A stretch of DNA of 64,000 bases from an uncultured Elusimicrobia bacterium (GCA_964508565.1 CAZDUB010000001.1:181726-245725), one strand, 5' to 3'. Shown: positions 4,823-16,733, counted from the first letter of the stretch. Translations and numbers: made by a program. The notes: generated by a model not told the origin, from the sequence alone.

Positions 4823-4976
4823 TGCGTGGATGCGTAGATGCGCGGATGAGTTTATTTAGATTATTAATTACACATTAACGCACTTAAGCATCAACACATT
4901 GGGTTTATTATGTTCGTTGGGGTCAAGTATATATCTCCCCTCTATTAAGAGGGGAATTAAAGGGGTGTGTTTGTTA
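4823..4976. repeat. Mosaic intergenic repeat block (GCGTGGATGCGT module, TGGGTTTAT module, hairpin/SD-like module)
   Basis: 4823-4860 matches 11963-12010 and, reversed, 61295-61330. 4931-4975 matches 1838-1881. Confidence 0.85.
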
Positions 4977-5571
4977 ATGAATAGATTAAATAGAAAATTT
5001 TTTCTTTCTCATCCGAAAAATGTGGCACCAAAACTTTTAGGGAAATATCTCGTAAGGGTTCTACAAGAAGGCAAAATAGTAACCAAAATTGTAGAGACAG
5101 AAGCCTATGGTGGGTTTGAAGACAAAGCCTGTCATGTAGGTAGATTTGGAAGAACAAAACGAACTGAGTTGCTTTTTGGAGAAGTTGGACATGCTTATAT
5201 TTATCCTGTACATATAAATACTTATTGTTTGAATGTTGTTTGTCATAAAAAAAAATCAGGCAGGTGGTATTTTAATCCGTGCAGTAGAAGTTGTTGAAGG
5301 AGTGGAGTTAATCTTAAAAAATTTGTATAAAACTACTGCAAAATCAAAAAATCTTCTACTTAATGGCCCCGGCAGAGTTTGTAAAGCATTACAAATAAAC
5401 ATGGAACTAAACGGTATAGATATGATAGACGAAGATATCCTTTATCTTGTAGAAGGTGAAAAAATAAAAAAATCTCAAATTATAACGACACCAAGAATCA
5501 ATATACCGTATGCAAAAGAATCAAAAAACTGGCTTTGGCGCTTCTTGCTTTCCAATGCGGGTTTGAAATAA
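4977..5571 (+). pseudogene. 3-methyladenine DNA glycosylase (Mpg/AAG family), frameshifted in an A9 run
   Basis: N-terminal part IVETEAYGG..D.ACH...GRTKRTELLFG..GHAYIY...CLNVVC in one frame. C-terminal part QAGGILIRAVE...NGPGRVCKAL continues in the +1 frame. The switch is at the A-run 5247-5255; eight As would restore the frame. Confidence 0.8.
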
Positions 5572-6575: not shown

Positions 6576-7493
6576 ATGATGCCAAAACAAGAAAAACCAA
6601 AAGTTTTAATAAGTGCGTGCTTAAATGGTCTAAGTTATAGGTATAATGGTACTGAAGCAAATGACGAGTTAGTAAACAAAATAAAACCTCTTTTTGAGTT
6701 AGTAAATGTTTGTCCTGAAGTTGGGATAGGACTTCCTATACCACGAAAACCTATAAGATTGCATTTTGAAAATAATAGATTTAGAGTAATCCAAGAAGAA
6801 AGCAACCTAGACTTAACTAAAAAACTTGAAGATTTCTCTCAAAATTTTTTAAAAAACTTAAAGGATATATGTGGCTGTATACTAAAGGCAAAATCTCCAA
6901 GTTGCGGCATAGCAAATGCTAAGTTCTATAAAGACAACAAAATTGCTGGCAGAACCTATGGGATCTTTGCAAGAACTATAAAAGAAAACTTACCTTATCT
7001 ACCTATTATAGATGAAGGAAGACTAAGAAACAAAGAACTTTTTTGGGAATTTTTAGTTAAAACATTTTTGCTTTTTAGATTTTATAACTCAAAATCTGAC
7101 ATAAAAAATTTGATAGAATTTCATTCTAAATATAAATACATACTTATGGGACTTTCTCAAAAATATCTTAAACTGCTTGGACAAATTCTTGCTAAGCACA
7201 CACCAAAAAATTTTAAAGAAACTCTAAATAATTACGAGTATTACCTTAAAGAAATTCTAAAACAATCTTTTAGAAGACCGAATTTAGCTAACGCTTTAAC
7301 TCACATTTTTGGACATATATCTAAATATTTATCAAAGAAAGAAAAAGAAAACTTTCTTAAAATAATAGAAAAATACCGCAAATTAAAAATTGATTTTCCC
7401 ACAGCTACTGAAATGTTAAAAATCTATGTGCTTAGGTTTGAGGATAGTTACCTTCAATCTCAGTATTTTTTTGAACCATTCCCTGAGATATAA
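6576..7493 (+). CDS. DUF523 + DUF1722 fusion protein (YbgA/TudS-like)
   Basis: N-terminal ISACLNG..YRYNG...CPEVGIGLPIPRKP is typical of DUF523. The helical C-terminal half is typical of DUF1722. Confidence 0.7.
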   Translation: MMPKQEKPKVLISACLNGLSYRYNGTEANDELVNKIKPLFELVNVCPEVGIGLPIPRKPIRLHFENNRFRVIQEESNLDLTKKLEDFSQNFLKNLKDICGCILKAKSPSCGIANAKFYKDNKIAGRTYGIFARTIKENLPYLPIIDEGRLRNKELFWEFLVKTFLLFRFYNSKSDIKNLIEFHSKYKYILMGLSQKYLKLLGQILAKHTPKNFKETLNNYEYYLKEILKQSFRRPNLANALTHIFGHISKYLSKKEKENFLKIIEKYRKLKIDFPTATEMLKIYVLRFEDSYLQSQYFFEPFPEI

Positions 7494-7681: not shown

Positions 7682-8152
7682 CTAGTTTGGAATTTCATTG
7701 TTTTTTTCTATAAACATCTGTAGATTTTTTACACAAAGACCTTTAGATTTACTAAATTTTTCTTTAAATTCAGAATCGTTGAGGTATTCAAACATTAAAG
7801 AGATATATCTTGCTTCTAACTCTTTTATTAACTCGCACACTTTACAGACTCTTTTTTCTTTAAACAATCTTTTTTCTTTATTTTTTAATTTTTTGACAAC
7901 ATCGTTTAAAAGATTTTCATAACATAATGCTACAGCAAGGCTATCATTGTAAGAAGCAAGTTTATAAGAATGGTAAACGCAAAAACCAAAATTTTCTTTA
8001 AACTCTTGTCTAAAGCCTATATCGTTAACATTTTCGTATAATAAGTCATTGTAGAATTTTTCAACTTTATCTCTTATCAAAAAACATATAGGACACTCTT
8101 CAAACTCAAATGCACAGACAAGTTCAAAATATGGAATATGTTTTTCTTTCAT
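7682..8152 (-). CDS. Cysteine-rich hypothetical protein (resembles DUF6062)
   Basis: EECPICFL ... CVYH ... CKVCE ... C motifs. An in-frame TAG at 7682-7684 is followed by 53 more sense codons, to 7520. Confidence 0.5.
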   Translation of the reverse strand: MKEKHIPYFELVCAFEFEECPICFLIRDKVEKFYNDLLYENVNDIGFRQEFKENFGFCVYHSYKLASYNDSLAVALCYENLLNDVVKKLKNKEKRLFKEKRVCKVCELIKELEARYISLMFEYLNDSEFKEKFSKSKGLCVKNLQMFIEKNNEIPN

Positions 8153-8204: not shown

Positions 8205-9452
8205 TTAGCTTACAAACAAAAAATATAGGTAGTAAACCAACATATTTAGAAAAGTCACCACTACACCTATTTTAAAAAATTCAAAAAAACTTATGAGGTT
8301 GTGTACCTTAAGTTTTCTTTCTGCGAGTTGAATTATGATTATGTTACTGGCTGCTCCAAGAATTGTTAAATTACCTGCAATTGTACTAGAAGTTGCTAAA
8401 CACATAAACTCTTTGTAAGTAGCAGACAAGTTTTTAAGAACAGGTATGTATAACACTACAAGAGGAACATTTGAAATAAACTGGCTTAACACAACACTTA
8501 CAATCATTATTGCAGGCAAAGATGCAAGATTAACCTTCAAAGAAAACAACAGTTTCTGAAATGTTCCTCCTTTCCATACAGAAGAGGTTAAAATAAACAT
8601 TGAAATAAAAAAAATTAGTGTTTGCCAATCAACTCTCTTTAGAATTTTTATTCTTTGGTTGCTAAAAATTAAAATTGGTAATGAAGAAATCAAAGTTATA
8701 TAAACAAGTTTTAAATCAAATTTAATTTTTAAGACATCAGATAATATTTTAAAGATGAGTAAAAGAAACATAATTGTTAAAGAAATTTTTGACAAAGTTG
8801 TAAGTTTTTTATTCTTTACTCGTCTATTTTTACCTAAAGAATCTTTTTCAATAGTAACTTTTTTAAAAAATTTTTTAATCACAAAATACGCCACGAATAT
8901 ATTTATAACAGTAGGAACAAAAAGATATTTAAAAAATACAAAGAATTGGTTTCTCACATTTAAATTGTTAGCAATTACAAAGTTTTGTGGATTACCTATT
9001 GGACTTAGAACACTTCCTATTGTGATTGAAAAAGCCAATGTTATAAGCAAAATTTTCACATCAATTTTATACTTTTCTGCAAGCAACAACATCACTGGAG
9101 TGGCTATAATTGCTATTGTATCATTTGTTAAAAACGCAGCCAAAAAACCCATCACAAACAAAATGTATATTAAAAGTTGGTCGTAATTTTTGACATTTTT
9201 GAAAAGTTTATATGTAAGATGTGTTAAATATCCGCTTCTTTCTAAAGATACTCCAATTACAAACATGCTAAACAAAAACAATATCACCTCCCAATCAACA
9301 GCGTAAACTGCCTCTTTTAAAGAAATCTCTCCCAATAACAAAACCAACAAAGCACCAAAAGTCATTGCTTGCCAGATTTGTAGTTTTATGTTGCCAACTT
9401 GTCTTGTAATGATTAAAAAAATAACTAAAATTAAGACAATAAAAGAAATCAT
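8205..9452 (-). CDS. ArsB/NhaD-superfamily anion/ion permease
   Basis: 415 aa polytopic membrane protein. The two-lobed repeat layout and GNPQN-like loop (SPIGNPQNF) are typical of CitMHS/ArsB-type permeases. Confidence 0.6.
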   Translation of the reverse strand: MISFIVLILVIFLIITRQVGNIKLQIWQAMTFGALLVLLLGEISLKEAVYAVDWEVILFLFSMFVIGVSLERSGYLTHLTYKLFKNVKNYDQLLIYILFVMGFLAAFLTNDTIAIIATPVMLLLAEKYKIDVKILLITLAFSITIGSVLSPIGNPQNFVIANNLNVRNQFFVFFKYLFVPTVINIFVAYFVIKKFFKKVTIEKDSLGKNRRVKNKKLTTLSKISLTIMFLLLIFKILSDVLKIKFDLKLVYITLISSLPILIFSNQRIKILKRVDWQTLIFFISMFILTSSVWKGGTFQKLLFSLKVNLASLPAIMIVSVVLSQFISNVPLVVLYIPVLKNLSATYKEFMCLATSSTIAGNLTILGAASNIIIIQLAERKLKVHNLISFFEFFKIGVVVTFLNMLVYYLYFLFVS

Positions 9453-9544
9453 ATTTTCGCTCCAGAATTAAATTTTGCTAATATATAAAATTGTGTTATC
9501 TTATTCAATTGATTTTTAATTATCTATTTTATATTTCAATCAAT

Positions 9545-9901
9545 ATGGAAGAAATAACAGAAATTCTAACTTCCCAACAACTACATCTAACTCTTTCGCA
9601 AAAAAATTTTATTAAAGAAACTTATGAAATCTTATCTATTTTTTACCCTGACATAGTCAAGATCATAAAACAAAAATTCCACGAAATAAAAACTAAACAA
9701 AAAAACAAATATTTAGCTGGCGAAGAATTTTTTGAGTTTATACAAAATCTCCGATATCCTATAAGTTTTCAAAAAATAAAAAAAATTAAAAAAATACCAG
9801 AACTAAAAAAATATATAAACATAATAACTCTTGAATTAGACGAAGATAAATTTCCAGAAGAGTTGCGCAACAATTTAAAAGAAATCTTAAACCAGCTATG
9901 A
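9545..9901 (+). CDS. Hypothetical small protein, first gene of the radical-SAM/DUF763 trio
   Basis: ATG at 9545 (MEEITEILTS...). Stop overlaps the next start (ATGA at 9898-9901). No recognisable family. Confidence 0.5.
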   Translation: MEEITEILTSQQLHLTLSQKNFIKETYEILSIFYPDIVKIIKQKFHEIKTKQKNKYLAGEEFFEFIQNLRYPISFQKIKKIKKIPELKKYINIITLELDEDKFPEELRNNLKEILNQL

Positions 9902-10854
9902 TAAGAAAAACTCACTTTATCAACAAATACGACTACGGTAAAGATGTAGTTGATTTAGACGAATATGTGGTTTCTTTAGGCACAAACTGTAGTTTGGGAT
10001 GCGAGTATTGTTATTTAAAATTTTCAAAAACGCCACAACAACCAGTCATATACGAAAATTTTGAAAAGTTCACAGAAGAAATAAAAGAACTTTTTAACGC
10101 AACAAAAAAAGATATCTTTTATTTCAATCTTGGTGAAACCACAGATTCTTTTCTTACGAAACAACATTTTGAAACATTAGAAAAGCTTATTGAAATAATT
10201 AACACAACCGCTAAAGAACATAAAAAATTTTGTTTTGTTGAGTTAAGAACAAAAACTGCTAATATAAAAAAATTTGCCAAAAGATTATTTTTTGAAAATG
10301 TAAAATTAATATATGCTGCAACTTTTTCTCCGCAACAACTGATAGAGAAATTTGAAAAAGGTACTGCTAATTTAAAAGAAAGGCTCAACTCTTTAAGTTT
10401 TGCCCAACAGTTAAATTTTTTAGTCGGCATAAGGTTAGAACCTATAATTCTTTATCCTGTTTTAGGTATTAGTTACAAAGATATTTTAGAATCTACTGAA
10501 AATTTAGTTAACGAATACAAGTCATTAATAAAACTTACTCTTAACGAAATAAACCATAAAAATCTACACTCTATAGCTCTATCCACTTTGCGACTTACAA
10601 AAAAACAGTTTAAACTTTTAACTAAACAAAAAAGTCAACTTTGTTTTTTTGAAACTTTTTTATGTCCAGACGGAAAAATTAGGTATTCAAGACCAATAAG
10701 GATAAATATTTACAAACAACTTATAGATTTTATAAAAAATCTATACCCAGAACTTGTAGAGAAAACTTTATTATCATTTGAATTTGAATACATATGGAGA
10801 AACTGTAACCTCAAAATAAAAACTCTACCACAACTAAGTAGTAACTATTTATGA
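9898..10854 (+). CDS. Radical SAM protein, spore-photoproduct-lyase/SplB-like (COG1533-like)
   Basis: CSLGCEYCY = a CxxxCxxC cluster near the N-terminus. 318 aa, with the length and layout of DNA-photolyase-like radical SAM enzymes. Confidence 0.7.
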   Translation: MIRKTHFINKYDYGKDVVDLDEYVVSLGTNCSLGCEYCYLKFSKTPQQPVIYENFEKFTEEIKELFNATKKDIFYFNLGETTDSFLTKQHFETLEKLIEIINTTAKEHKKFCFVELRTKTANIKKFAKRLFFENVKLIYAATFSPQQLIEKFEKGTANLKERLNSLSFAQQLNFLVGIRLEPIILYPVLGISYKDILESTENLVNEYKSLIKLTLNEINHKNLHSIALSTLRLTKKQFKLLTKQKSQLCFFETFLCPDGKIRYSRPIRINIYKQLIDFIKNLYPELVEKTLLSFEFEYIWRNCNLKIKTLPQLSSNYL

Positions 10855-11945
10855 AAAGACGCTTTGCTGATTTACCACTTCATACGGGAGAAGCACCCAA
10901 GTGGCTTTTTGAAAGACAAAAAAAGCTGTTGTTTGAAATATGCAAAGTAGTTATTTTAGAATATGGCACACAAGAACTGCTTTATCGTTTAGCTGACCCT
11001 GTTTGGTTTCAAATTTTAGGTTGTATTTCTGGATTTGATTGGCACTCTTCCGGAGTTACAACTACAGTTAGCGCTGCTATAAAAGAAGCTTTTAGAAATT
11101 CGCCGGAATATGGATTGTATGCTTTTGGTGGGAAAGGCAAAACTGCTTTGAAAACTCCTCAAGAAATTTTATCCTCAAAGTACATAAACACACCAGAGTT
11201 TTTTGTTACAATTTCAAAACTTACAGCAAAAGTTGACAACAGCTGTATCCAAGATGGTTACCAAATATACCATCACACTATTTTCATAGATAAAGATGGT
11301 AACTGGTGCGTTGTCCAACAAGGAATGAATACTAACTTAAGATATGCTCGTAGGTATCATTGGTTTAACAAGACTACAAAATCTCAGCAAAAACAGTTTA
11401 TAATTTCACCACACACAGGTATCGCTGCACAAAAAAAAGAAAACAATGTTTTAAACTTTGTAGACGAGAACTCTCTTCCTCTACAAAAAAATATACTTGA
11501 ATATATTAACTTACAAAAACCAGAAGATATAATAAAAGATTTGTCCAAGATGGCATCCACTACAAGCCAACCAGACCTTTTTTTACCGCAAAGACATTAC
11601 ATCTTAAAAGAAGACTTTGACCACAAAAAACTTTATAAAATGTTTTGTAAAATAAAAAATCAAAATGTAAACTCTTTTTCAGATATATTATTAACAGAAG
11701 GAGTTGGACCTAAAACACTGCGTGCTTTGGGACTAATATCAGAACTGATCTACAACTATCCTGTATCTACAACAGACCCAGCGAGGTTTTCTTTTGCTTT
11801 CGGAGGAAAAGACGGACATCCATATCCTGTAGATAAAGAAAACTACGACAAAACACTAAATCTATTTAAAACTATAATAGACAAAGCAAAAATAGAAGGC
11901 AAAGAAAAATTGAGGATTTTAAAAATTTTAGCAACCAATGTGTGA
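10851..11945 (+). CDS. DUF763 family protein with helix-hairpin-helix motif
   Basis: N-terminal ADLPLHTGEAPKWLFERQ...LADPVWFQ...GFDWHSSGVTTT matches my memory of DUF763. LLTEGVGPKTLRALGLISELIY (nt about 11689-11752) is HhH-like. ATGA overlap with the upstream gene. Confidence 0.75.
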   Translation: MKRRFADLPLHTGEAPKWLFERQKKLLFEICKVVILEYGTQELLYRLADPVWFQILGCISGFDWHSSGVTTTVSAAIKEAFRNSPEYGLYAFGGKGKTALKTPQEILSSKYINTPEFFVTISKLTAKVDNSCIQDGYQIYHHTIFIDKDGNWCVVQQGMNTNLRYARRYHWFNKTTKSQQKQFIISPHTGIAAQKKENNVLNFVDENSLPLQKNILEYINLQKPEDIIKDLSKMASTTSQPDLFLPQRHYILKEDFDHKKLYKMFCKIKNQNVNSFSDILLTEGVGPKTLRALGLISELIYNYPVSTTDPARFSFAFGGKDGHPYPVDKENYDKTLNLFKTIIDKAKIEGKEKLRILKILATNV

Positions 11946-12195
11946 AGAAAGCAAATTAGTGAATGTGTGGATACGTATATGCGTGGATGAGTGGATAAGT
12001 TTATTTAGGTTTATTCTGCTTACGCATATAAATATTAACGCATGTACGCATTAACATATTGGGTCTATCGAGTTCATTGGGTTTATTGGGTTTGTTGAGT
12101 TTAATATATCACTAAAACCCTAACCTCTATATCCTAGAGCTCCTAACTCCTTTTACAATAAAACCAAATAACCAAACAACTATATAATCAAATTA
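11946..12195. repeat. Mosaic intergenic repeat block (modules A-B-C-D)
   Basis: GTGGATACGTATATGCGTGGATGAG (A), 9-bp-periodic TGGGTTTAT array 12058-12104 (B), TTAATATATCACTAAAACCCTAACC (C), AACCAAACAAC (D). The B-C-D order recurs at 52994-53130 and, reversed, at 60958-61140. Confidence 0.85.
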
Positions 12196-12212
12196 ACCAG
12201 TCAATTCTTATA

Positions 12213-13472
12213 CTATTGTCTTAACCCGATAGAGATACCACAATGGGAATATCTTTCTAATGGAGGCTTTGTTGCTAAATAATCTAATGTACTTGCTCCA
12301 ACGCAACCTAAAATTTTTCTATTCAAAAATCTCAATATCAAAACTATACAACTAATATTATTTAATAACATCCCTAATTTTTTCGTACTCATGACTTCCT
12401 TTCTTAAATTTACTGATGTATTTTTTGTATACTGAGTGTGCTTTTTTGTTATCATTCAACTTTTTTGTAATCTTTAAGCTCTTTATAACAATATCCAATT
12501 TTAAGTTTAGCATCAGCAGTAATATCTTTTAGCTTCGGCGGCAAGAATGGAAAAAAAGTTTGTGTATTATAAGACGGAAGTTGCATTTTTATAAATTCTA
12601 AACACAAATCTAAAGCGTTTTGATATTCTTTTTGTCTATAATACACATTTTGCTAAGTGATAAGTTAAAGCAGGCTTTAAAAAATTATTTGTTTCATACT
12701 TTTTATATAGAGATACTGCTTTCTCAATCACTTTTTCTTTCTCTTCAAGTTGTTCGTAACAAAAAATAATTCTTCAATGACATCAAATATATATATATTG
12801 AGTTATAATACTTCTGTAAAAATTGTTCATATTCTATTATTGCTTTTTGGTAACTATTATTATGGATTGTTTTTCTATCAGAATAAATTACCCTAAGACA
12901 ATACTGAGCATCTTGTGAGTATACAGTATTTATATATTTAGCATAGTCACTATATGCTATGGTTAAATATAGAAGAAGTAACGGATTTCTTTTCAATTCT
13001 TTCTCTGGAAGTTTTAAAATTTCATATTCTGCTTCTTTAGGATAACCCTGTGTTAAAGAAAACTACTAACCTCTTCAATATATTTTATATATAAAGTTTC
13101 ATCAAACTTTTTGTGCAAGTTATATTTTTTCTATCAAATTTTTTCTATAAGACGCTTCCATAACAATAAAATCTGATTTTAAATTTTTAAATTTTTTTCT
13201 ATTTCTTTAAAAATTTCGTAAGCTAAAGAAAAATTCTTAATACTTTCATATGACTTATCCAGAATCAACATAACAGAAGCTTTACGATGGTCTGAAAGCG
13301 CCTTGATTCTTAAAGCCTTATTACACTTAGATATTACTTTTTTTACTTTTTCATAATCTTTTTTCTCTTGATAAATGTAAATTTCCTTCATTATTCCCTC
13401 AATATCTTCTTGACAAAACAATTTTAAGGTTAAAAATAAACATAAAAAAACAAAAACGCTAAACCTCTTCAT
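12213..13472 (-). pseudogene. Decayed TPR-like secreted protein gene, broken into at least 4 fragments
   Basis: Successive minus-strand ORF fragments begin with a signal peptide (MKRFSVFVFLCLFL...). They carry TPR-like Y/A/L-rich helices such as YYRQKEYQNALD and GYCYKELKDYKK, interrupted by stops and frame changes. Confidence 0.55.
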
Positions 13473-13814
13473 AAGAAATTACACTCCATTCTGCAATTTT
13501 CTAATATGGACGGTCTACTAAATTTTACCAACATATTCAATTTATAACTTATTTTTTTGAAATTCTTCTTTTGAGAGTTCTGTTATAATCTTTACTTTAA
13601 CCTCTATTAAAGTAGCAAATCCTGGATATATAAAGTTATGACTATGAATGTATAAGTATAAGGTTAAAAGTAAATGAAATTTCTATAATGTCAAGAAATA
13701 CACAGAGTATTCGTTTAGTAAAACTTGACAAAGGTATCAAAGTTGCAGATGTCTGAGGAAGAGTAGTTAAGTTAAAAATAATTTATGCTTGAAAGATAAA
13801 AATTTTAAAAATTT

Positions 13815-13840
13815 CCCCGCCCGGGTTTTCCGGGCGGAGG
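13815..13840 (-). terminator. GC-rich hairpin, likely intrinsic terminator of the 13880-14155 gene
   Basis: CCGCCCGG (13817-13824) / CCGGGCGG (13830-13837), loop GTTTT. On the minus strand a T-rich tract follows (GGAAATTTTTAAAATT). Confidence 0.65.
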
Positions 13841-13879
13841 TTAGAAGTTCAAGAATTCACAATTCAGTACTTCAATAAA

Positions 13880-14155
13880 TTACTTTATCGTAGGAGCTGC
13901 TGTAGGTGTTGAAGATTTTACTTCTGTTTCTTTTGCCTTTTTGGATGATTTCTTAGCAGTCTTTTTCACTTTCTTAACACTTTCCTTCTTTTCTGTCTTT
14001 GCTGCTGATGTTACTGGAGTCGCTGGAGTTGTAGAAGTTGCTGTTTTTTTCTGTTGTGTCTGTGTAGTAACAGGTGTTGTTGCTTGTTTTTCTTCAGCAT
14101 AAATTGTACTAAATATAAAACCTATTAAAGCAAATAAAATAACTAATTTTTTCAT
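13880..14155 (-). CDS. Small secreted Lys/Thr/Pro-rich low-complexity protein
   Basis: Signal peptide MKKLVILFALIGFIFSTIYA, GGAGG RBS upstream, terminator downstream. Confidence 0.6.
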   Translation of the reverse strand: MKKLVILFALIGFIFSTIYAEEKQATTPVTTQTQQKKTATSTTPATPVTSAAKTEKKESVKKVKKTAKKSSKKAKETEVKSSTPTAAPTIK

Positions 14156-14228
14156 TGCCTGGTTCCTCCTTTTTTATAAATAATTTTAAAAAATTATTGT
14201 TAGTATTTACAAAAGCTTTGCAGAGAAA

Positions 14229-14546
14229 TTATAAAATAGGCGGGTCATCTCTTGGGAAAGAAATTAGATTAGAAAAAATTTCATAAATTATGAACTGTTC
14301 GTTACCATCGATGAGATTACTTAGAGGCTTAAAATAAAAACAAACATCAAGATTGTTGGTAATAGTGCTTAAATTAGGAAGAAGAAAATCAAAATTTATT
14401 TCTATGCGGGTTAAATAATCATTAGAAAAAGAATCTACATCAGTTGGATATTTATTTTCTATCTCAACTTCTTTACTACTAACAAGCGTGACTAAAAATA
14501 AAAACACTATGAATTCAAAAATCAGTAATTTAAATTTTCTATTCAT
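14229..14546 (-). CDS. Hypothetical secreted protein
   Basis: 105 aa ORF with an N-terminal hydrophobic signal-like segment. No family recognised. Confidence 0.35.
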   Translation of the reverse strand: MNRKFKLLIFEFIVFLFLVTLVSSKEVEIENKYPTDVDSFSNDYLTRIEINFDFLLPNLSTITNNLDVCFYFKPLSNLIDGNEQFIIYEIFSNLISFPRDDPPIL

Positions 14547-14889
14547 ATTCTTTGTTTTGTAATTTTGTATTAAATATTTTTGTCATTTGTCACAATAGTT
14601 TGGAATTATAACTAGCTATCCCGTTATTATATAAGACAACAAAAATTCTAAAAACTTGCGGTCTTTATTTTGATAACTATTTTATTTTTGTAGAAAAATT
14701 TCACATTAGAAAAACTCTGCTCAAAATAGTCTTTTGTAAGAACGGTTGGAATGTTATATTCATACAAATAATTAAGCACAAACAGAATAAGTTCCTCTTT
14801 TTATTCTACGATTAGGTCTTAATAACTCATTTCATTTTGAACTTATTGAGTAAGATTATAACTAACATTTCCAGCAAGATAATGAATTC

Positions 14890-15150
14890 TCACTTCAGTA
14901 CCATTTCACTGCTATTATTATGGTGTATAGAAATAAACTTGTCTGCTGCATAGCTTTTTGCAATGTTTGCCCTTTCTTTTAAATTCCCATTATAATTGGC
15001 ATTCTTCGTTAATTTAACATAATCTCCTTCAGTTGCCGGTTTGTCAGCTAATCTTTTAGTTATCTCAAGATTTATTTCTTTTTCTACTGTTCCTACAGCA
15101 TCATCTATAGCTCAAGTATCAGAATCTCGATATTCAGAATCAACCACAAA
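14890..15150 (-). pseudogene. N-acetylmuramoyl-L-alanine amidase (Amidase_3) remnant
   Basis: Minus-strand translation: FVVDSEYRDSDT*AIDDAVGTVEKEINLEITKRLADKPATEGDYVKLTKNANYNGNLKERANIAKSYAADKFISIHHNNS. This matches the Amidase_3 core (EKDINL...L.ER..iAN...AD.FISIH.N). It has an internal stop and has lost the GHGG motif. Confidence 0.7.
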
Positions 15151-15273
15151 AAACTTTGTCAAGTAGTGTTAAAAAAGTCCTAAATTATACAAATATCATT
15201 GATAAAATTTGATTTCTTTATAGAAATTTTGTATTTGACAATTAAACTACTATACAAACAAATTGCTAAACCA

Positions 15274-16179
15274 ATGAAAATTGTTTATTCACCAAAATAT
15301 GAGGTGGATTTAGGCGAACATCCTTTTGATACAAGAAAATACAGATTAATAAAAGAAAAACTTCAAAAAGAGTTTTCAACAGTTGAATTTGTAGAACCAA
15401 AGCAAGCTTCAGCCCAAACTTTAACCAAAGTCCACACAAAAGAATATGTTGAAAAAGTGCTAAACTTAAAGCTTTCCTATCATGAAATTCTAAGACTTGA
15501 AATCCCTCTAACAAAAGAAATTATAGAAGCTTCTTGTATATCTGTAGGTGGTACAATTTTAGCAGCAGAGTTAGCTTTAAAACAAAAAGTTGGGCTTCAT
15601 ATTGGCGGGGGGTGGCACCACGCTTATGCTGATCATGGAGAAGGTTTTTGTGTTTTTAACGACATCGCATGTGCTATAAAATATTTGCAGGAAAAAAACC
15701 TTGCTAAAAAGATAGCGGTTGTAGATTGTGATGTCCACCAAGGCAACGGAACTGCCAAAATTTTTGAAAATGACAACGATGTTTTTACATTTTCAATTCA
15801 CCAGAAAGAAATTTACCCTTTTCCAAAAGAAAAAAGTACACTTGATATTGAAGTTGCTGCCTATACAACAGATGATGAATACTTAAAACTATTAGAACAA
15901 GGACTAAAAGAAGTAAAAAAGTTCGTACCAGAAATTGTATTTTACCAAGCAGGAACAGATATCTATGAATACGATCAGCTTGCACAACTTAAAATAACAA
16001 AAAATGGTATCCTTAAGCGAGACATGATTGTTAAAGAATATTTCAAAGAAATTCCTATTATTGTCACTTTAGGAGGAGGTTATGCCTTCAAACTTGAAGA
16101 CACAGTTGAACTACACTACAACACACTTAAAATTTTTGTTGAAGATTTTTTAAGTATTGGAAAACAATTTAAAAAATAG
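15274..16179 (+). CDS. Histone deacetylase-family (zinc-dependent) deacetylase
   Basis: HIGGGWHHAYADHGEGFCVFND, DCDVHQGNGT and LGGGY signatures. Start taken at MKIVYSPKY. Confidence 0.85.
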   Translation: MKIVYSPKYEVDLGEHPFDTRKYRLIKEKLQKEFSTVEFVEPKQASAQTLTKVHTKEYVEKVLNLKLSYHEILRLEIPLTKEIIEASCISVGGTILAAELALKQKVGLHIGGGWHHAYADHGEGFCVFNDIACAIKYLQEKNLAKKIAVVDCDVHQGNGTAKIFENDNDVFTFSIHQKEIYPFPKEKSTLDIEVAAYTTDDEYLKLLEQGLKEVKKFVPEIVFYQAGTDIYEYDQLAQLKITKNGILKRDMIVKEYFKEIPIIVTLGGGYAFKLEDTVELHYNTLKIFVEDFLSIGKQFKK

Positions 16180-16229
16180 TAAATGTAAATTTTGTGGATA
16201 TAAAATTGCAGGAGTTTGGAATTAAAATT

Positions 16230-16733
16230 ATGGAACTTTTAGAACTTATCAAATCAAGACGGAGTATAAGAAAATTTAAACAACAACCAATTTCAGAAGA
16301 ATTTATTCAACAAATTTTGGAAGCTGCAAGATGGGCTCCTTCTGGGTTAAACAACCAACCTTGGCGGTTTATAATAATAAAAGACAAAAAATCTATTGAA
16401 GAACTTTCACAATTTACAAAGTACAGTTATATAATTAAACAAGCAGCAATATTGATTGTTGTGTTTTTAGACAACACTGCAAGTTATGATAGAACTAAAG
16501 ACATTCAAGCAATTGGTGCTTGTATTCAAAATATGCTTCTTATGTGTCATGCATTAGGTTTAGGTTGCTGTTGGATTGGTGAAATATTAAACAGAAAAGA
16601 TGAAGTTGAAAAATTTTTAGGGATTTCTTCCTCGCTTGAATTAATGGCAGTTTTAGCTATCGGTTGGCCACAAGAAACCCCAACAATAGGAAAAAGGAAG
16701 CCATTAGATGAGTTAATATTAAAAAAAATTTGA
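16230..16733 (+). CDS. Nitroreductase family protein
   Basis: LELIKSRRSIRKF, APSGLNNQPWRF and WIG motifs. ATG at 16230 preferred over the GTG at 16194. Confidence 0.85.
   Translation: MELLELIKSRRSIRKFKQQPISEEFIQQILEAARWAPSGLNNQPWRFIIIKDKKSIEELSQFTKYSYIIKQAAILIVVFLDNTASYDRTKDIQAIGACIQNMLLMCHALGLGCCWIGEILNRKDEVEKFLGISSSLELMAVLAIGWPQETPTIGKRKPLDELILKKI

Follow-up and report, generated by a model that had tools for sequence, protein, structure and literature searches.

Gene Organization of the Locus

The window, i.e., the whole 64,000-nt stretch of DNA of an uncultured Elusimicrobia bacterium analyzed in this work, was characterized by a GC content of 30% and a coding density of 86%. Three real, conserved genes, all on the plus strand, occupy the region between positions 9545 and 11945. 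ORF1 (9545..9901) codes for a basic, all-helical orphan protein of 118 aa and lies upstream of a radical SAM gene, ORF2 (9898..10854), whose 318-aa product is an N-terminally truncated member of the SPL family (PF20903) lacking the hydrogen-donor Cys. The third gene, ORF3 (10851..11945), encodes a full-length DUF763 protein (PF05559) of 364 aa. Mechanical gene calling placed the start of ORF1 at TTG 9491; its 28 homologues align from the Met encoded by ATG 9545, and this ATG was taken as the start codon. All three products are basic, with a pI of about 9, which says little because the proteome is lysine-rich at a 30% GC content. No significant match to the PADLOC anti-phage defence models was obtained for any of them.

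The first-pass annotation described the three ORFs as coupled by ATGA start/stop overlaps, and such overlaps are indeed present at 9898–9901 and 10851–10854. They are not distinctive in the window, since overlaps of exactly 4 nt occur at 11 of the 51 junctions between adjacent same-strand genes (16 of 51 when any overlap is counted). At the closest relative, locus L173, the chain of 4-nt overlaps runs on from the DUF763 gene into a Hist_deacetyl gene.

Upstream of ORF1, an intergenic region of 92 nt (9453..9544) separates it from the divergently oriented CitMHS transporter gene (8205–9452, minus strand). In this genome, the region is the only available place for an operon promoter. Promoter-like matches were no commoner there than in shuffled sequence (18 versus 14.6 expected, no excess), so no promoter was shown in this region. 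At three related loci (L081, L087 and L168), the CitMHS gene runs in the same direction as ORF1 and overlaps its start.

ORF2 Is a Predicted Cut-Down Member of the SPL Family

The product of ORF2 had been proposed to be a radical SAM enzyme of the SPL-like/SplB group. The family part of this assignment stood, as the protein matched PF20903 (SPL) with 51.2 bits at a cut-off of 27, the profile match beginning at position 77. Its identification with SplB did not, the score against the SplB equivalog model TIGR04070 being 66.2 bits relative to a cut-off of 400. The score against TIGR03886 was 21 bits (cut-off 437), and the match to PF04055 was weak (25.3 bits) and below the 29.5 cut-off; the cluster motif CSLGCEYC predicts membership of the radical SAM superfamily. 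The profile of the ORF2 family detected the SP lyase structure 4FHG in the PDB with an E value of 3.9e-14, and hhalign aligned ORF2 residues 17–304 with residues 79–346 of the 349 of full-length SPL-family proteins (probability 100, E 3e-56). Homologues of ORF2 formed 39 clusters, all from Endomicrobiia and WOR-3 type lineages.

The CxxxCxxC cluster recognized earlier near the N-terminus of ORF2 was confirmed as the [4Fe-4S]/SAM motif (CSLGCEYC, 9988..10011, with flanking Tyr37 and Tyr39), C31, C35 and C38 being invariant in 37 homologues. These three are the only invariant cysteines of the subfamily, and hence no SPASM-type auxiliary cluster is predicted in ORF2. The possibility that ORF2 is a SPASM/twitch peptide maturase was considered and rejected, as no conserved Cys was found beyond CxxxCxxC and maturase models gave noise-level matches only.

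In SP lyase, roles have been described for Tyr96 and Tyr98, for the fourth, hydrogen-donor Cys (Cys140; Cys77 in Clostridium) and for a beta-hairpin with Arg304/Tyr305 at its tip (PMC3467042). The comparison of ORF2 with SplB of Geobacillus thermodenitrificans (PDB 4FHC–4FHG) and Bacillus subtilis indicated, besides PF20903 itself, the common CxxxCxxC motif with two tyrosines after it (CxYCY), the partial TIM-barrel core and the C-terminal region. CEYCY of ORF2 aligned with CHYCY of 4FHG, so that the invariant Y37 and Y39 correspond to Tyr96 and Tyr98; the invariant K119 occupies the position of Lys174, and T143 (Ser or Thr in the family) that of Ser195. The dipeptide R262-Y263 (10681..10686) is invariant in the subfamily and matched R-Y in the alignment to full-length proteins of the SPL family, and its distance from the aligned E-T anchor is within one residue of that in the SP lyase structure chain. 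By this indirect route, Arg262-Tyr263 is probably the counterpart of the hairpin tip Arg304/Tyr305.

Other features of SplB are missing from ORF2. Only 30 residues precede the cluster, and about 78 N-terminal residues, which form an alpha/beta domain of a four-stranded sheet and three helices in SplB, are absent together with the region of the Clostridium Cys77 counterpart. The segment FNLGETTD, containing the GETTD motif (10132..10146), paired with FEAASTSD of the C140S chain of 4FHG, which puts Glu80 at the position of Cys140; in the 37 homologues, G79 is invariant and E80 nearly so. The lesion-binding Arg193 is replaced by Ala141. Finally, unlike SplB, ORF2 invariably has an orphan helical protein as its partner. 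Because its TIGR04070 score is below the cut-off and both the N-terminal domain and the catalytic Cys are missing, ORF2 is not regarded as a SplB orthologue, and judging from these alignments, it is not a true SP lyase and is a cut-down member of the SPL family.

The G-E-x-x-D motif was also found in other SPL-family members that are not SplB. Many full-length SplB-type (COG1533) proteins of non-sporeformers, which like ORF2 represent the SPL family outside sporeformers, share it with Glu at the Cys140 position. They differ from ORF2 in retaining the N-terminal domain (82–107 residues before the cluster) and in having no ORF1-like partner. SplB-type proteins of non-sporeformers were reported to be SOS-regulated (PMC8565304).

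Spore formation is not known from the Endomicrobiia-type host lineage discussed here. The sole SPL-family enzyme known to have been characterized acts on DNA, and a nucleic-acid theme is plausible for ORF2 by analogy. The proposal of a nucleic-acid substrate draws on that one characterized relative, two of whose lesion-specific residues ORF2 does not have.

ORF1 Encodes an Orphan Helical Protein Constantly Paired with ORF2

Searches of Pfam, NCBIfam and PADLOC with ORF1 matched no family, and the PHROGs matches were weak (E 0.007 at best) and confined to families of unknown function. In a word-index search, the homologues of ORF1 formed 29 clusters, all of Endomicrobiia or WOR-3 type, and HMMER, run exhaustively against 1.84 billion representatives, yielded 17 matches to the family. 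The AF2 model (pLDDT 89) comprised seven helices, and neither its fold nor its sequence had a match in the PDB. Seven polar residues, T16, S18, E25, R70, Y71, K77 and E97, are invariant. The idea that ORF1 is the detached N-terminal domain of SP lyase was dismissed (hhalign probability 0.2; ORF1 all-helical).

The earlier description of the ORF1 product as a small protein was correct as to size and incomplete as to its standing, for it is the constant partner of ORF2. ORF1 lies directly 5' of the radical SAM gene at every locus examined (the window, L081–L088, L167, L168 and L173), with the genes of the comparison loci called by a crude longest-ORF heuristic. The two families occurred in the same taxa and on the same contigs. 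In WOR-3, the ORF1–ORF2 pair is kept, and at L169, which represents a divergent third group, a remote ORF1 homologue occupies the same position, with its stop overlapping the start of the radical SAM gene. The genes neighboring the pair in WOR-3 and at L169 are not repair genes. No ORF1-like gene was found beside distant SPL-family genes (0 of 76 loci). The ORF1–ORF2 pair is thus the conserved unit, with a 1:1 linkage between its members.

As to the role of ORF1, a subunit of the enzyme, its regulator and its substrate are all possible. Control of the radical SAM gene at the transcriptional or post-transcriptional level, with ORF1 as a dedicated regulator in the manner of SplA and not as a subunit, has a precedent in the Bacillus splAB operon, in which the small gene directly 5' of splB encodes a negative regulator of SP lyase (PMC1976550). 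The arrangement is alike in that a small gene and, immediately after it, an SPL-family radical SAM gene share an operon, and ORF1 is suitably small, helical and basic. The likeness is limited to gene order, though, as ORF1 gave no significant Pfam/NCBIfam match and no detectable homology to SplA, and its identification as a SplA homologue was rejected; nor does it resemble any regulator family or HTH fold. SplA is a TRAP-like, beta-rich protein, whereas ORF1 is predicted to be all-helical. In contrast to splAB, the stop of ORF1 overlaps the start of the enzyme gene, an overlap that favors equimolar co-translation, and ORF1 and the enzyme diverge together, as far as the remote pair at L169. A purely regulatory role is therefore considered very unlikely.

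The strict 1:1 gene pairing and the handful of invariant polar residues could also suit an ORF1 that serves as the substrate, with the radical SAM enzyme modifying a conserved residue, e.g., in the T-x-S-Q-K or L-R-Y-P motifs. This role appears least credible, and we give it hardly any weight: ORF2 has neither the cysteines of a SPASM/twitch cluster nor a peptide-recognition domain, ORF1 is predicted with high confidence as a folded helical bundle and not as a leader-core peptide, and no characterized SPL-family member acts on protein.

DUF763 Contains a Predicted DNA-Binding Helix-Hairpin-Helix

The assignment of the third ORF to DUF763 was fully supported by the match to PF05559 (392.9 bits at a cut-off of 35.5; E 1.5e-117), which spanned positions 2–319 of the 319 in the profile, and the DUF763 motifs quoted in the first-pass annotation proved invariant or almost invariant in 89 homologues. 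ORF3, a typical full-length representative of this family, stands apart solely by its Endomicrobiia-specific place behind the radical SAM pair; its homologues formed more than 8000 clusters and are 47–50% identical across many phyla. DUF763 was absent from the IMG/VR viral contigs, and no functional study of it was found in searchable papers.

An HhH-like motif had also been noticed in ORF3, and GVGPKTLRALGLISELIY was located at nt 11700–11753, about 11 nt away from where it had been placed. The whole helix-hairpin-helix (11676..11753) comprises residues 276–301 with the hairpin G-V-G-P-K-T. The AF2 model of ORF3 (pLDDT 81, pTM 0.79) contained a helix at 276–280, a loop and a helix at 287–301; G286 is invariant and K288 nearly so. 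The Pfam HHH model matched in register but below threshold in four of five DUF763 homologues (13.8–17.4 bits, cut-off 24). The profile of the DUF763 C-terminal part found RuvA as the best PDB match (E=0.002), and most of the next matches were also HhH proteins (topoisomerase V, ComEA and endonuclease III). On these sequence and model grounds, the HhH of DUF763 is judged a genuine, predicted DNA-binding motif.

The comparison of folds that had been suggested as a way of relating DUF763 to glycosylases or nucleases gave no such relationship, as Foldseek searches of the PDB and BFVD returned nothing at E<=0.001, and a profile search against PDB sequences was likewise negative. The candidate identity of DUF763 as an HhH-GPD glycosylase was rejected in view of no Pfam HhH-GPD match and no Foldseek match to a glycosylase. 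With EndoIII-like proteins, hhalign aligned DUF763 over 28 columns only, around GVGxKT (probability 39–68%), and generic HhH proteins outscored EndoIII against the C-terminal profile.

Neighborhoods of DUF763 and the Radical SAM Pair

In other genomes, the association of DUF763 with repair genes is weak. Repair genes were located beside DUF763 at about 14 of 80 loci and differed by lineage: a PCMT-DUF763-PolX-EndoIII-like operon in Actinomycetota, a PD-(D/E)XK gene directly 3' of DUF763 at seven Dehalococcoidia loci, and an AlkB gene overlapping the DUF763 start on a Rhodopseudomonas plasmid. Most neighborhoods consisted of unrelated housekeeping genes. For 35 of the 80 DUF763 genes, there was no close same-strand neighbor, and the most recurrent neighbor family was present at seven loci at most.

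A conserved adjacency of DUF763 and radical SAM genes across genomes, whose lack the first-pass annotation had named as refuting its proposal, turned out to be essentially absent outside one lineage. Among the 80 diverse DUF763-seeded genomes (at least 1.3 kb of upstream sequence present for 71 of the 80 loci), an SPL-family gene was found within 6 kb of DUF763 in one, with an unrelated gene between them. Among 80 SPL-family-seeded metagenome loci, DUF763 stood beside the SPL-family gene at two, both close relatives of the window. In WOR-3 and the L169 group, DUF763 was not adjacent to the radical SAM pair. The order of the trio was kept at all Endomicrobiia-type loci seen (the window, L173, L081/82, L087/88, L167 and L168), so the adjacency is specific to this lineage. 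The radical SAM proteins of these loci are only about 55% identical, and at L167 the trio is kept with both flanks different; both observations allow for a real functional connection to DUF763 within this lineage.

These data bear on the view that the trio works as a single obligate machine for DNA repair or modification, in which the radical SAM enzyme acts on the lesion, DUF763 handles the DNA and ORF1 is a third subunit. The constant order of the trio, its persistence at L167 amid other flanking genes, the HhH of DUF763 and its repair-gene neighbors elsewhere all speak for such a machine, as does an unrelated genome (L058) in which a different SPL-family gene lies 0.8 kb 5' of DUF763. It is nevertheless judged unlikely. 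The pairs of WOR-3 and the L169 group have no DUF763 alongside. SPL-family genes are missing within 6 kb of DUF763 at 79 of the 80 diverse loci, and the DUF763 family is some 200-fold more widespread than the radical SAM subfamily (more than 8000 clusters versus 39). No fused proteins were among the matches listed, and at L168 the radical SAM gene and DUF763 are separated by an inserted nucleotidyltransferase gene. Moreover, most trio loci lie within one larger syntenic block of unrelated genes, from CitMHS to PGI, and the order of the trio may thus be plain inheritance. The proposal that DUF763 is the DNA-handling partner of the radical enzyme was not upheld. Of the repair module suggested in the first-pass annotation, what survives is the family calls, the HhH and the nucleic-acid theme; the joining of the radical SAM gene and DUF763 into a module finds no support outside one lineage.

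The opposite extreme is that the gene order reflects nothing but inheritance in a compact genome, with unrelated functions of the three genes and an ORF2 that does not act on nucleic acid but is, e.g., a small-molecule or cofactor-related lyase of SPL descent. The frequent 4-nt overlaps in the window are consistent with it, as are the overlaps that join unrelated genes in relatives (DUF763/Hist_deacetyl and CitMHS/ORF1), the loss from ORF2 of the SP-specific Cys140, Arg193 and N-terminal domain, and the lack of repair genes around the pair in WOR-3 and at L169. Against this stand the invariant Arg-Tyr tip signature and the whole SPL C-terminal region kept in ORF2, the SOS control reported for SPL-family members of other non-sporeformers (PMC8565304), and an ORF1–ORF2 pairing far too constant for chance. 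This explanation, too, seems improbable.

Discussion

The reading that we favor, with a probability of roughly one half, is that one densely packed operon of an Endomicrobiia-type genome contains two separate, neighboring units, the ORF1–ORF2 pair and DUF763. ORF1 and ORF2 would be the two components of a radical SAM system that is rare and lineage-restricted. In ORF2, the [4Fe-4S]/SAM site is intact, as are the Lys and the Ser/Thr that contact SAM and the two active-site tyrosines; the Arg-Tyr tip with which SP lyase acts on DNA is probably retained as well. ORF2 would therefore most likely generate a 5'-deoxyadenosyl radical and abstract hydrogen from a nucleic-acid lesion or base other than the classical spore photoproduct. 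ORF1 would most likely be an accessory subunit on which ORF2 depends, serving as an adaptor for substrate recognition or in place of the lost N-terminal domain.

DUF763, which is distributed independently and far more widely, combines its HhH with an otherwise unmatched fold and probably functions as an autonomous DNA-damage-processing protein. Its adjacency to the radical SAM gene and the ATGA overlaps could then be explained by operon packing in this lineage, reflecting at most a shared theme of DNA maintenance and no obligate partnership.

A putative two-gene repair system composed of a COG4277 radical SAM protein and a COG1573 uracil-DNA-glycosylase-like protein has been mentioned previously (PMC8565304). 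It resembles the ORF1–ORF2 pair in concept, as a radical SAM protein operonically paired with a second protein and presumed to act in repair. The radical SAM family and the partner are different in the window, where ORF2 does not match such models and DUF763 is not UDG-like.

A bolder extension, to which we assign a distinctly low probability, is a hitherto unknown radical-based DNA repair route in anaerobic Endomicrobiia. In such a route, ORF1 would be the specificity subunit of the Cys-less SPL-type enzyme, whose task would be to split or de-modify a lesion other than SP (e.g., another thymine or dihydropyrimidine adduct), and DUF763 would process the product. DUF763 would then be a widespread HhH enzyme with a novel fold; its invariant Lys288 and Asp309 recall the way in which Lys and Asp are arranged in HhH glycosylase-lyases. 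If this were true, a family present in thousands of bacteria and archaea would gain its first function, that of a DNA-damage-processing enzyme.

Gene Layout of the Trio

The three genes are packed on the plus strand in the order ORF1 (9545–9901, 118 aa), encoding a small protein, ORF2 (9898–10854, 318 aa), encoding a radical SAM enzyme of the spore photoproduct lyase (SPL) family, and ORF3 (10851–11945, 364 aa), encoding a DUF763 protein. The ATGA start/stop overlaps by which the first-pass annotation had linked them are present at both junctions, 9898–9901 and 10851–10854. The start of ORF1 was placed at ATG 9545 and not at the mechanically assigned TTG 9491, because 28 homologues align from the methionine of ATG 9545. 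The window has a GC content of 30% and a coding density of about 86%, and 16 of its 51 same-strand adjacent gene pairs overlap. Since 11 of the 51 do so by exactly 4 nt, the overlaps of the trio, though real, are typical of this genome; when genomes are compact, overlapping start and stop codons lend a functional module little support. The closest homologues bear Endomicrobiia or Elusimicrobiota names.

Structured RNAs or terminators around the trio were considered and rejected. Rfam gave no matches across 9000–15400, which includes the 3.2-kb stretch 3′ of DUF763, and no intrinsic terminator was found 3′ of this gene. An imperfect 31-nt inverted repeat (11954–12052; 71% complementary, 37-nt spacer) starts 9 nt past the DUF763 stop codon, but its RNA fold did not surpass that of shuffled sequence (z = −1.56), and a terminator-like T run is absent after it. 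An origin of the trio in a defence system was rejected for lack of PADLOC matches, and a phage origin because the PHROGs search with ORF2 returned an unnamed family only and DUF763 was absent from viral contigs.

ORF2 Is a Truncated Member of the SPL Family

The assignment of ORF2 to the SplB/SPL group held at the level of the family, with 51.2 bits against the Pfam SPL profile (PF20903, cut-off 27) and a weak match to Pfam Radical_SAM, but not at the level of the SP lyase orthologue, as the SplB equivalog TIGR04070 gave only 66 bits against a cut-off of 400. A profile built from 37 homologues of ORF2 matched SP lyase structures with an E-value of 3.9e-14. When ORF2 was compared by hhalign with 40 full-length, distantly related members of the SPL family (probability 100), its residues 17–304 paired with positions 79–346 of 349, and therefore about 78 N-terminal residues are missing. 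The missing region corresponds to an alpha/beta domain in the SP lyase structure (PMC3467042).

Residue equivalences were taken from sequence alignments and are given in SP lyase numbering. The cluster cysteines Cys90, Cys94 and Cys97 (C31, C35 and C38 in ORF2), Tyr96 and Tyr98 (Y37 and Y39) and Lys174 (K119) are kept and invariant, and Ser195 is kept as T143, the family having Ser or Thr at this position. The hydrogen donor Cys140 is lost, being replaced by Glu80 within a near-invariant G-E-T-T-D, and so is the lesion-binding Arg193, replaced by Ala141. Many full-length family members from metagenomes that are not SplB have G-E-x-x-D as well. The invariant Arg262-Tyr263 of ORF2 pair with the R-Y of full-length members and lie no more than one residue from where the spacing would place the hairpin tip Arg304/Tyr305. 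As the invariant cysteines are three only, ORF2 has no auxiliary cluster of the SPASM type. With the N-terminus, Cys140 and Arg193 lost and a low TIGR04070 score, ORF2 is thus, as judged from its sequence, a divergent, truncated and cysteine-less SPL-family member but not an orthologue of SP lyase. That it acts on nucleic acid is slightly favoured. SplB-type proteins of non-sporeformers have been described as SOS-regulated (PMC8565304).

ORF1 Is the Constant Gene Partner of ORF2

ORF1 had no matches in Pfam, NCBIfam or PADLOC, and its PHROGs matches were weak (best E 0.007) and to families of unknown function. Its AF2 model is confident (pLDDT 89) and has seven helices; no match to the PDB was obtained by fold or by sequence. 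The family is small, comprising 29 clusters in a word-index search and only 17 matches when 1.84 billion representatives were searched exhaustively with HMMER. The radical SAM subfamily of ORF2 comprises 39 clusters; both are limited to lineages of the Endomicrobiia and WOR-3 types, where they occur on common contigs. ORF1 lay directly 5′ of the radical SAM gene at every locus examined, including WOR-3, in which the ORF1 homologue is 40% identical and no DUF763 gene follows the radical SAM gene. A 335-aa gene found there instead was rejected as a cryptic DUF763 (BLASTP E 1.7). A more divergent group is represented by L169, whose enzyme is 38% identical; here the radical SAM gene is overlapped at its start by a 131-aa ORF with F/L-T-x-S/T-Q-K/R and R-Y-P motifs in common with ORF1. 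This ORF can be regarded as a remote ORF1 homologue only with caution, because hhalign gave a low probability (E 1.2e-3).

The reading of ORF1 as the SPL N-terminal domain in detached form was rejected. In hhalign, comparison with the N-terminal regions of the 40 full-length members gave a probability of 0.2, and the all-helical ORF1 model differs from the alpha/beta domain of SP lyase (PMC3467042). In Bacillus, splA, encoding a small negative regulator, precedes splB (PMC1976550); splA is an analogue of ORF1 in gene arrangement, not a homologue. The real partner of ORF2 is ORF1, and we put the probability that the two form a functional unit at about 0.8.

DUF763: Family, Fold and Neighbourhoods

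The identification of ORF3 as DUF763 was borne out over the full length of the profile (392.9 bits, positions 2–319 of 319). The family is highly conserved, with more than 8000 clusters at 47–50% identity across phyla, and is found in thousands of bacteria and archaea; no functional study of it (PF05559, COG1415, IPR008482) was found in the papers searched. A DUF763 gene is further carried by 230 plasmids or chromids, the majority from Rhizobium and Sinorhizobium, with haloarchaea in addition, and therefore genetically tractable hosts exist.

The AF2 model of DUF763 (pLDDT 81, pTM 0.79) was compared by fold, as the first-pass annotation had proposed with glycosylases and nucleases in mind, and Foldseek returned nothing at E ≤ 0.001 in the PDB or BFVD. 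The family profile likewise matched no PDB sequence. The helix-hairpin-helix (HhH) that had been noted in ORF3 is, going by profiles and the predicted model, genuine. Residues 276–301 are modelled as helix, hairpin and helix, Pfam HHH matches in register, though below threshold, in four of five homologues, and the best PDB matches of the C-terminal profile were RuvA (E 0.002), topoisomerase V, ComEA and EndoIII.

DUF763 was also considered as a divergent HhH-GPD glycosylase. Residues 262–289, including G-V-G-x-K-T, aligned with EndoIII-like neighbours in hhalign at a probability of 39–68%, but the likeness is confined to 28 columns round the hairpin and no fold match was found. Because generic HhH proteins such as RuvA outscore EndoIII, no glycosylase homology is claimed; a resemblance of DUF763 Lys288/Asp309 to EndoIII Lys120/Asp138 is speculation. 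The GGKGKT loop was also considered as a Walker A motif, which was rejected, as family-wide conservation is limited to G-G-K.

Genes of repair type neighbour DUF763 in about 14 of 80 loci from diverse genomes. The clearest such context is an operon in two Actinomycetota MAGs (L027, 5986–9516; L045, 5244–9550) with genes, in this order, for protein isoaspartate methyltransferase (PCMT), DUF763, PolX overlapping the DUF763 stop codon and an EndoIII-like HhH-GPD glycosylase. PCMT adjoins DUF763 in L045 only; in L027 it is found 2.3 kb upstream, beyond a glycosyltransferase gene. In seven Dehalococcoidia-type loci (L006, L014, L016, L017, L029, L041 and L049), DUF763 is followed directly, on the same strand, by a gene whose product of about 440 aa belongs to the PD-(D/E)XK family, and L006 has a DNA methyltransferase (N6/N4) gene on the 5′ side. 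On plasmid pBAL398.3 of Rhodopseudomonas sp. BAL398 (L170, 5393–7263), an AlkB dioxygenase gene and DUF763 share a single base, at the end of the former and the start of the latter. These neighbourhoods are suggestive, not conclusive, of a repair role, and an action of DUF763 on DNA is rated a little above even odds.

DUF763 Is Not Generally Tied to the Radical SAM Gene

DUF763 had been proposed as the DNA-handling partner of the radical enzyme, to be checked by adjacency across genomes. Profile searches of the 80 DUF763 loci and of 80 SPL-family loci from metagenomes argue against this. An SPL-family gene lay within 6 kb of DUF763 at one of the 80 loci (L058), where it belongs to a different subfamily from ORF2 and is separated from DUF763 by a crotonase gene. 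Conversely, DUF763 adjoined an SPL-family gene at 2 of the 80 metagenome loci, both the closest relatives of the window. No close same-strand neighbour was found for 35 of the 80 DUF763 genes, no neighbouring family occurred in more than seven loci, and neither BLAST clustering nor Pfam counts (137 and 50 neighbouring ORFs) revealed a universal conserved neighbour.

Among Endomicrobiia-type loci, the window, L173, L081/82, L087/88, L167 and L168 have retained the order ORF1, radical SAM gene, DUF763. Most of these loci have in common a larger block of CitMHS transporter, trio, Hist_deacetyl, second radical SAM gene and PGI, in which 4-nt overlaps reach clearly unrelated genes (DUF763/Hist_deacetyl in L173; CitMHS/ORF1 in L081 and L168). 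In L168, the radical SAM gene and DUF763 are separated by an inserted nucleotidyltransferase gene. Most of the conservation can therefore be put down to inherited gene order. A functional link of the trio specific to the Endomicrobiia may nevertheless exist, and L167, the only locus with different genes on both flanks, speaks for a real one. What had been noted about the three ORFs is real, but the main conclusion drawn from it fails as a general rule, since DUF763 is not a conserved DNA-handling partner of the radical enzyme, and an obligate three-part module is unlikely. DUF763 is an independent, probably DNA-related neighbour of the radical SAM pair in a packed operon.

The second radical SAM gene of the relatives (about 360 aa, Radical_SAM plus Fer4_12) lies between Hist_deacetyl and PGI (L173, 7967–9058; L081, 7980–9059; L168, 7548–8648); in the window a nitroreductase gene (16194–16733, plus strand) occupies its position. 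DUF763 and Hist_deacetyl overlap directly in L173 and L081, whereas in the window an ORF-poor stretch of 3.2 kb (11946–15198) separates DUF763 from Hist_deacetyl (15199–16179). A gene on its minus strand, with a signal peptide and weak TPR matches, is present in fragments (12213–13472), and there are also two small secreted-looking minus-strand ORFs (13880–14155 and 14229–14546); the stretch has the appearance of an insertion whose genes are decaying. At 13816–13842 there is a GC-rich hairpin, CCCCGCCCGGGTTTTCCGGGCGGAGG, after which the minus strand has an A/T run with T stretches at its end, AAATTTTTAAAATTTTT; this probably serves the small Thr/Lys-rich ORF 13880–14155 as its intrinsic terminator.

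Upstream of the trio, two overlapping plus-strand ORFs in different frames encode the halves of a methylpurine-DNA glycosylase (Pur_DNA_glyco), with profile positions 2–86 in 4899–5297 and 82–179 in 5233–5571. The closest relative, L173, has a single intact 195-aa gene at the equivalent place; the split at 4899–5571 reflects either a frameshift in the gene or an error in sequencing. Between SAICAR synthase and CitMHS lie genes for a 2-thiouracil-desulfurase (DUF523) plus DUF1722 fusion protein (6576–7493, plus strand) and a Cys-rich DUF6062 protein (7682–8152, minus strand), both absent from the matching L173 stretch. The E. coli homologue of the fusion protein, ybgA, is presumably in an operon with photolyase.

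Significance

SP lyase, the textbook case of an enzyme that undoes DNA damage directly by radical chemistry, is the sole SPL-family member known to be characterised. ORF1 and ORF2 are probably an orphan two-component SPL-type radical SAM system acting on a nucleic-acid substrate other than spore photoproduct. A natural SPL variant lacking the N-terminal domain and the donor cysteine and having a dedicated partner would reveal how this chemistry is retargeted and how the radical is quenched without a cysteine relay. DUF763 is highly conserved, without known function or recognisable fold, and present in tractable rhizobia; its HhH and scattered operon links to PolX, EndoIII-like, PD-(D/E)XK, AlkB and SPL-type genes make a role in DNA damage a specific hypothesis that would be inexpensive to test.
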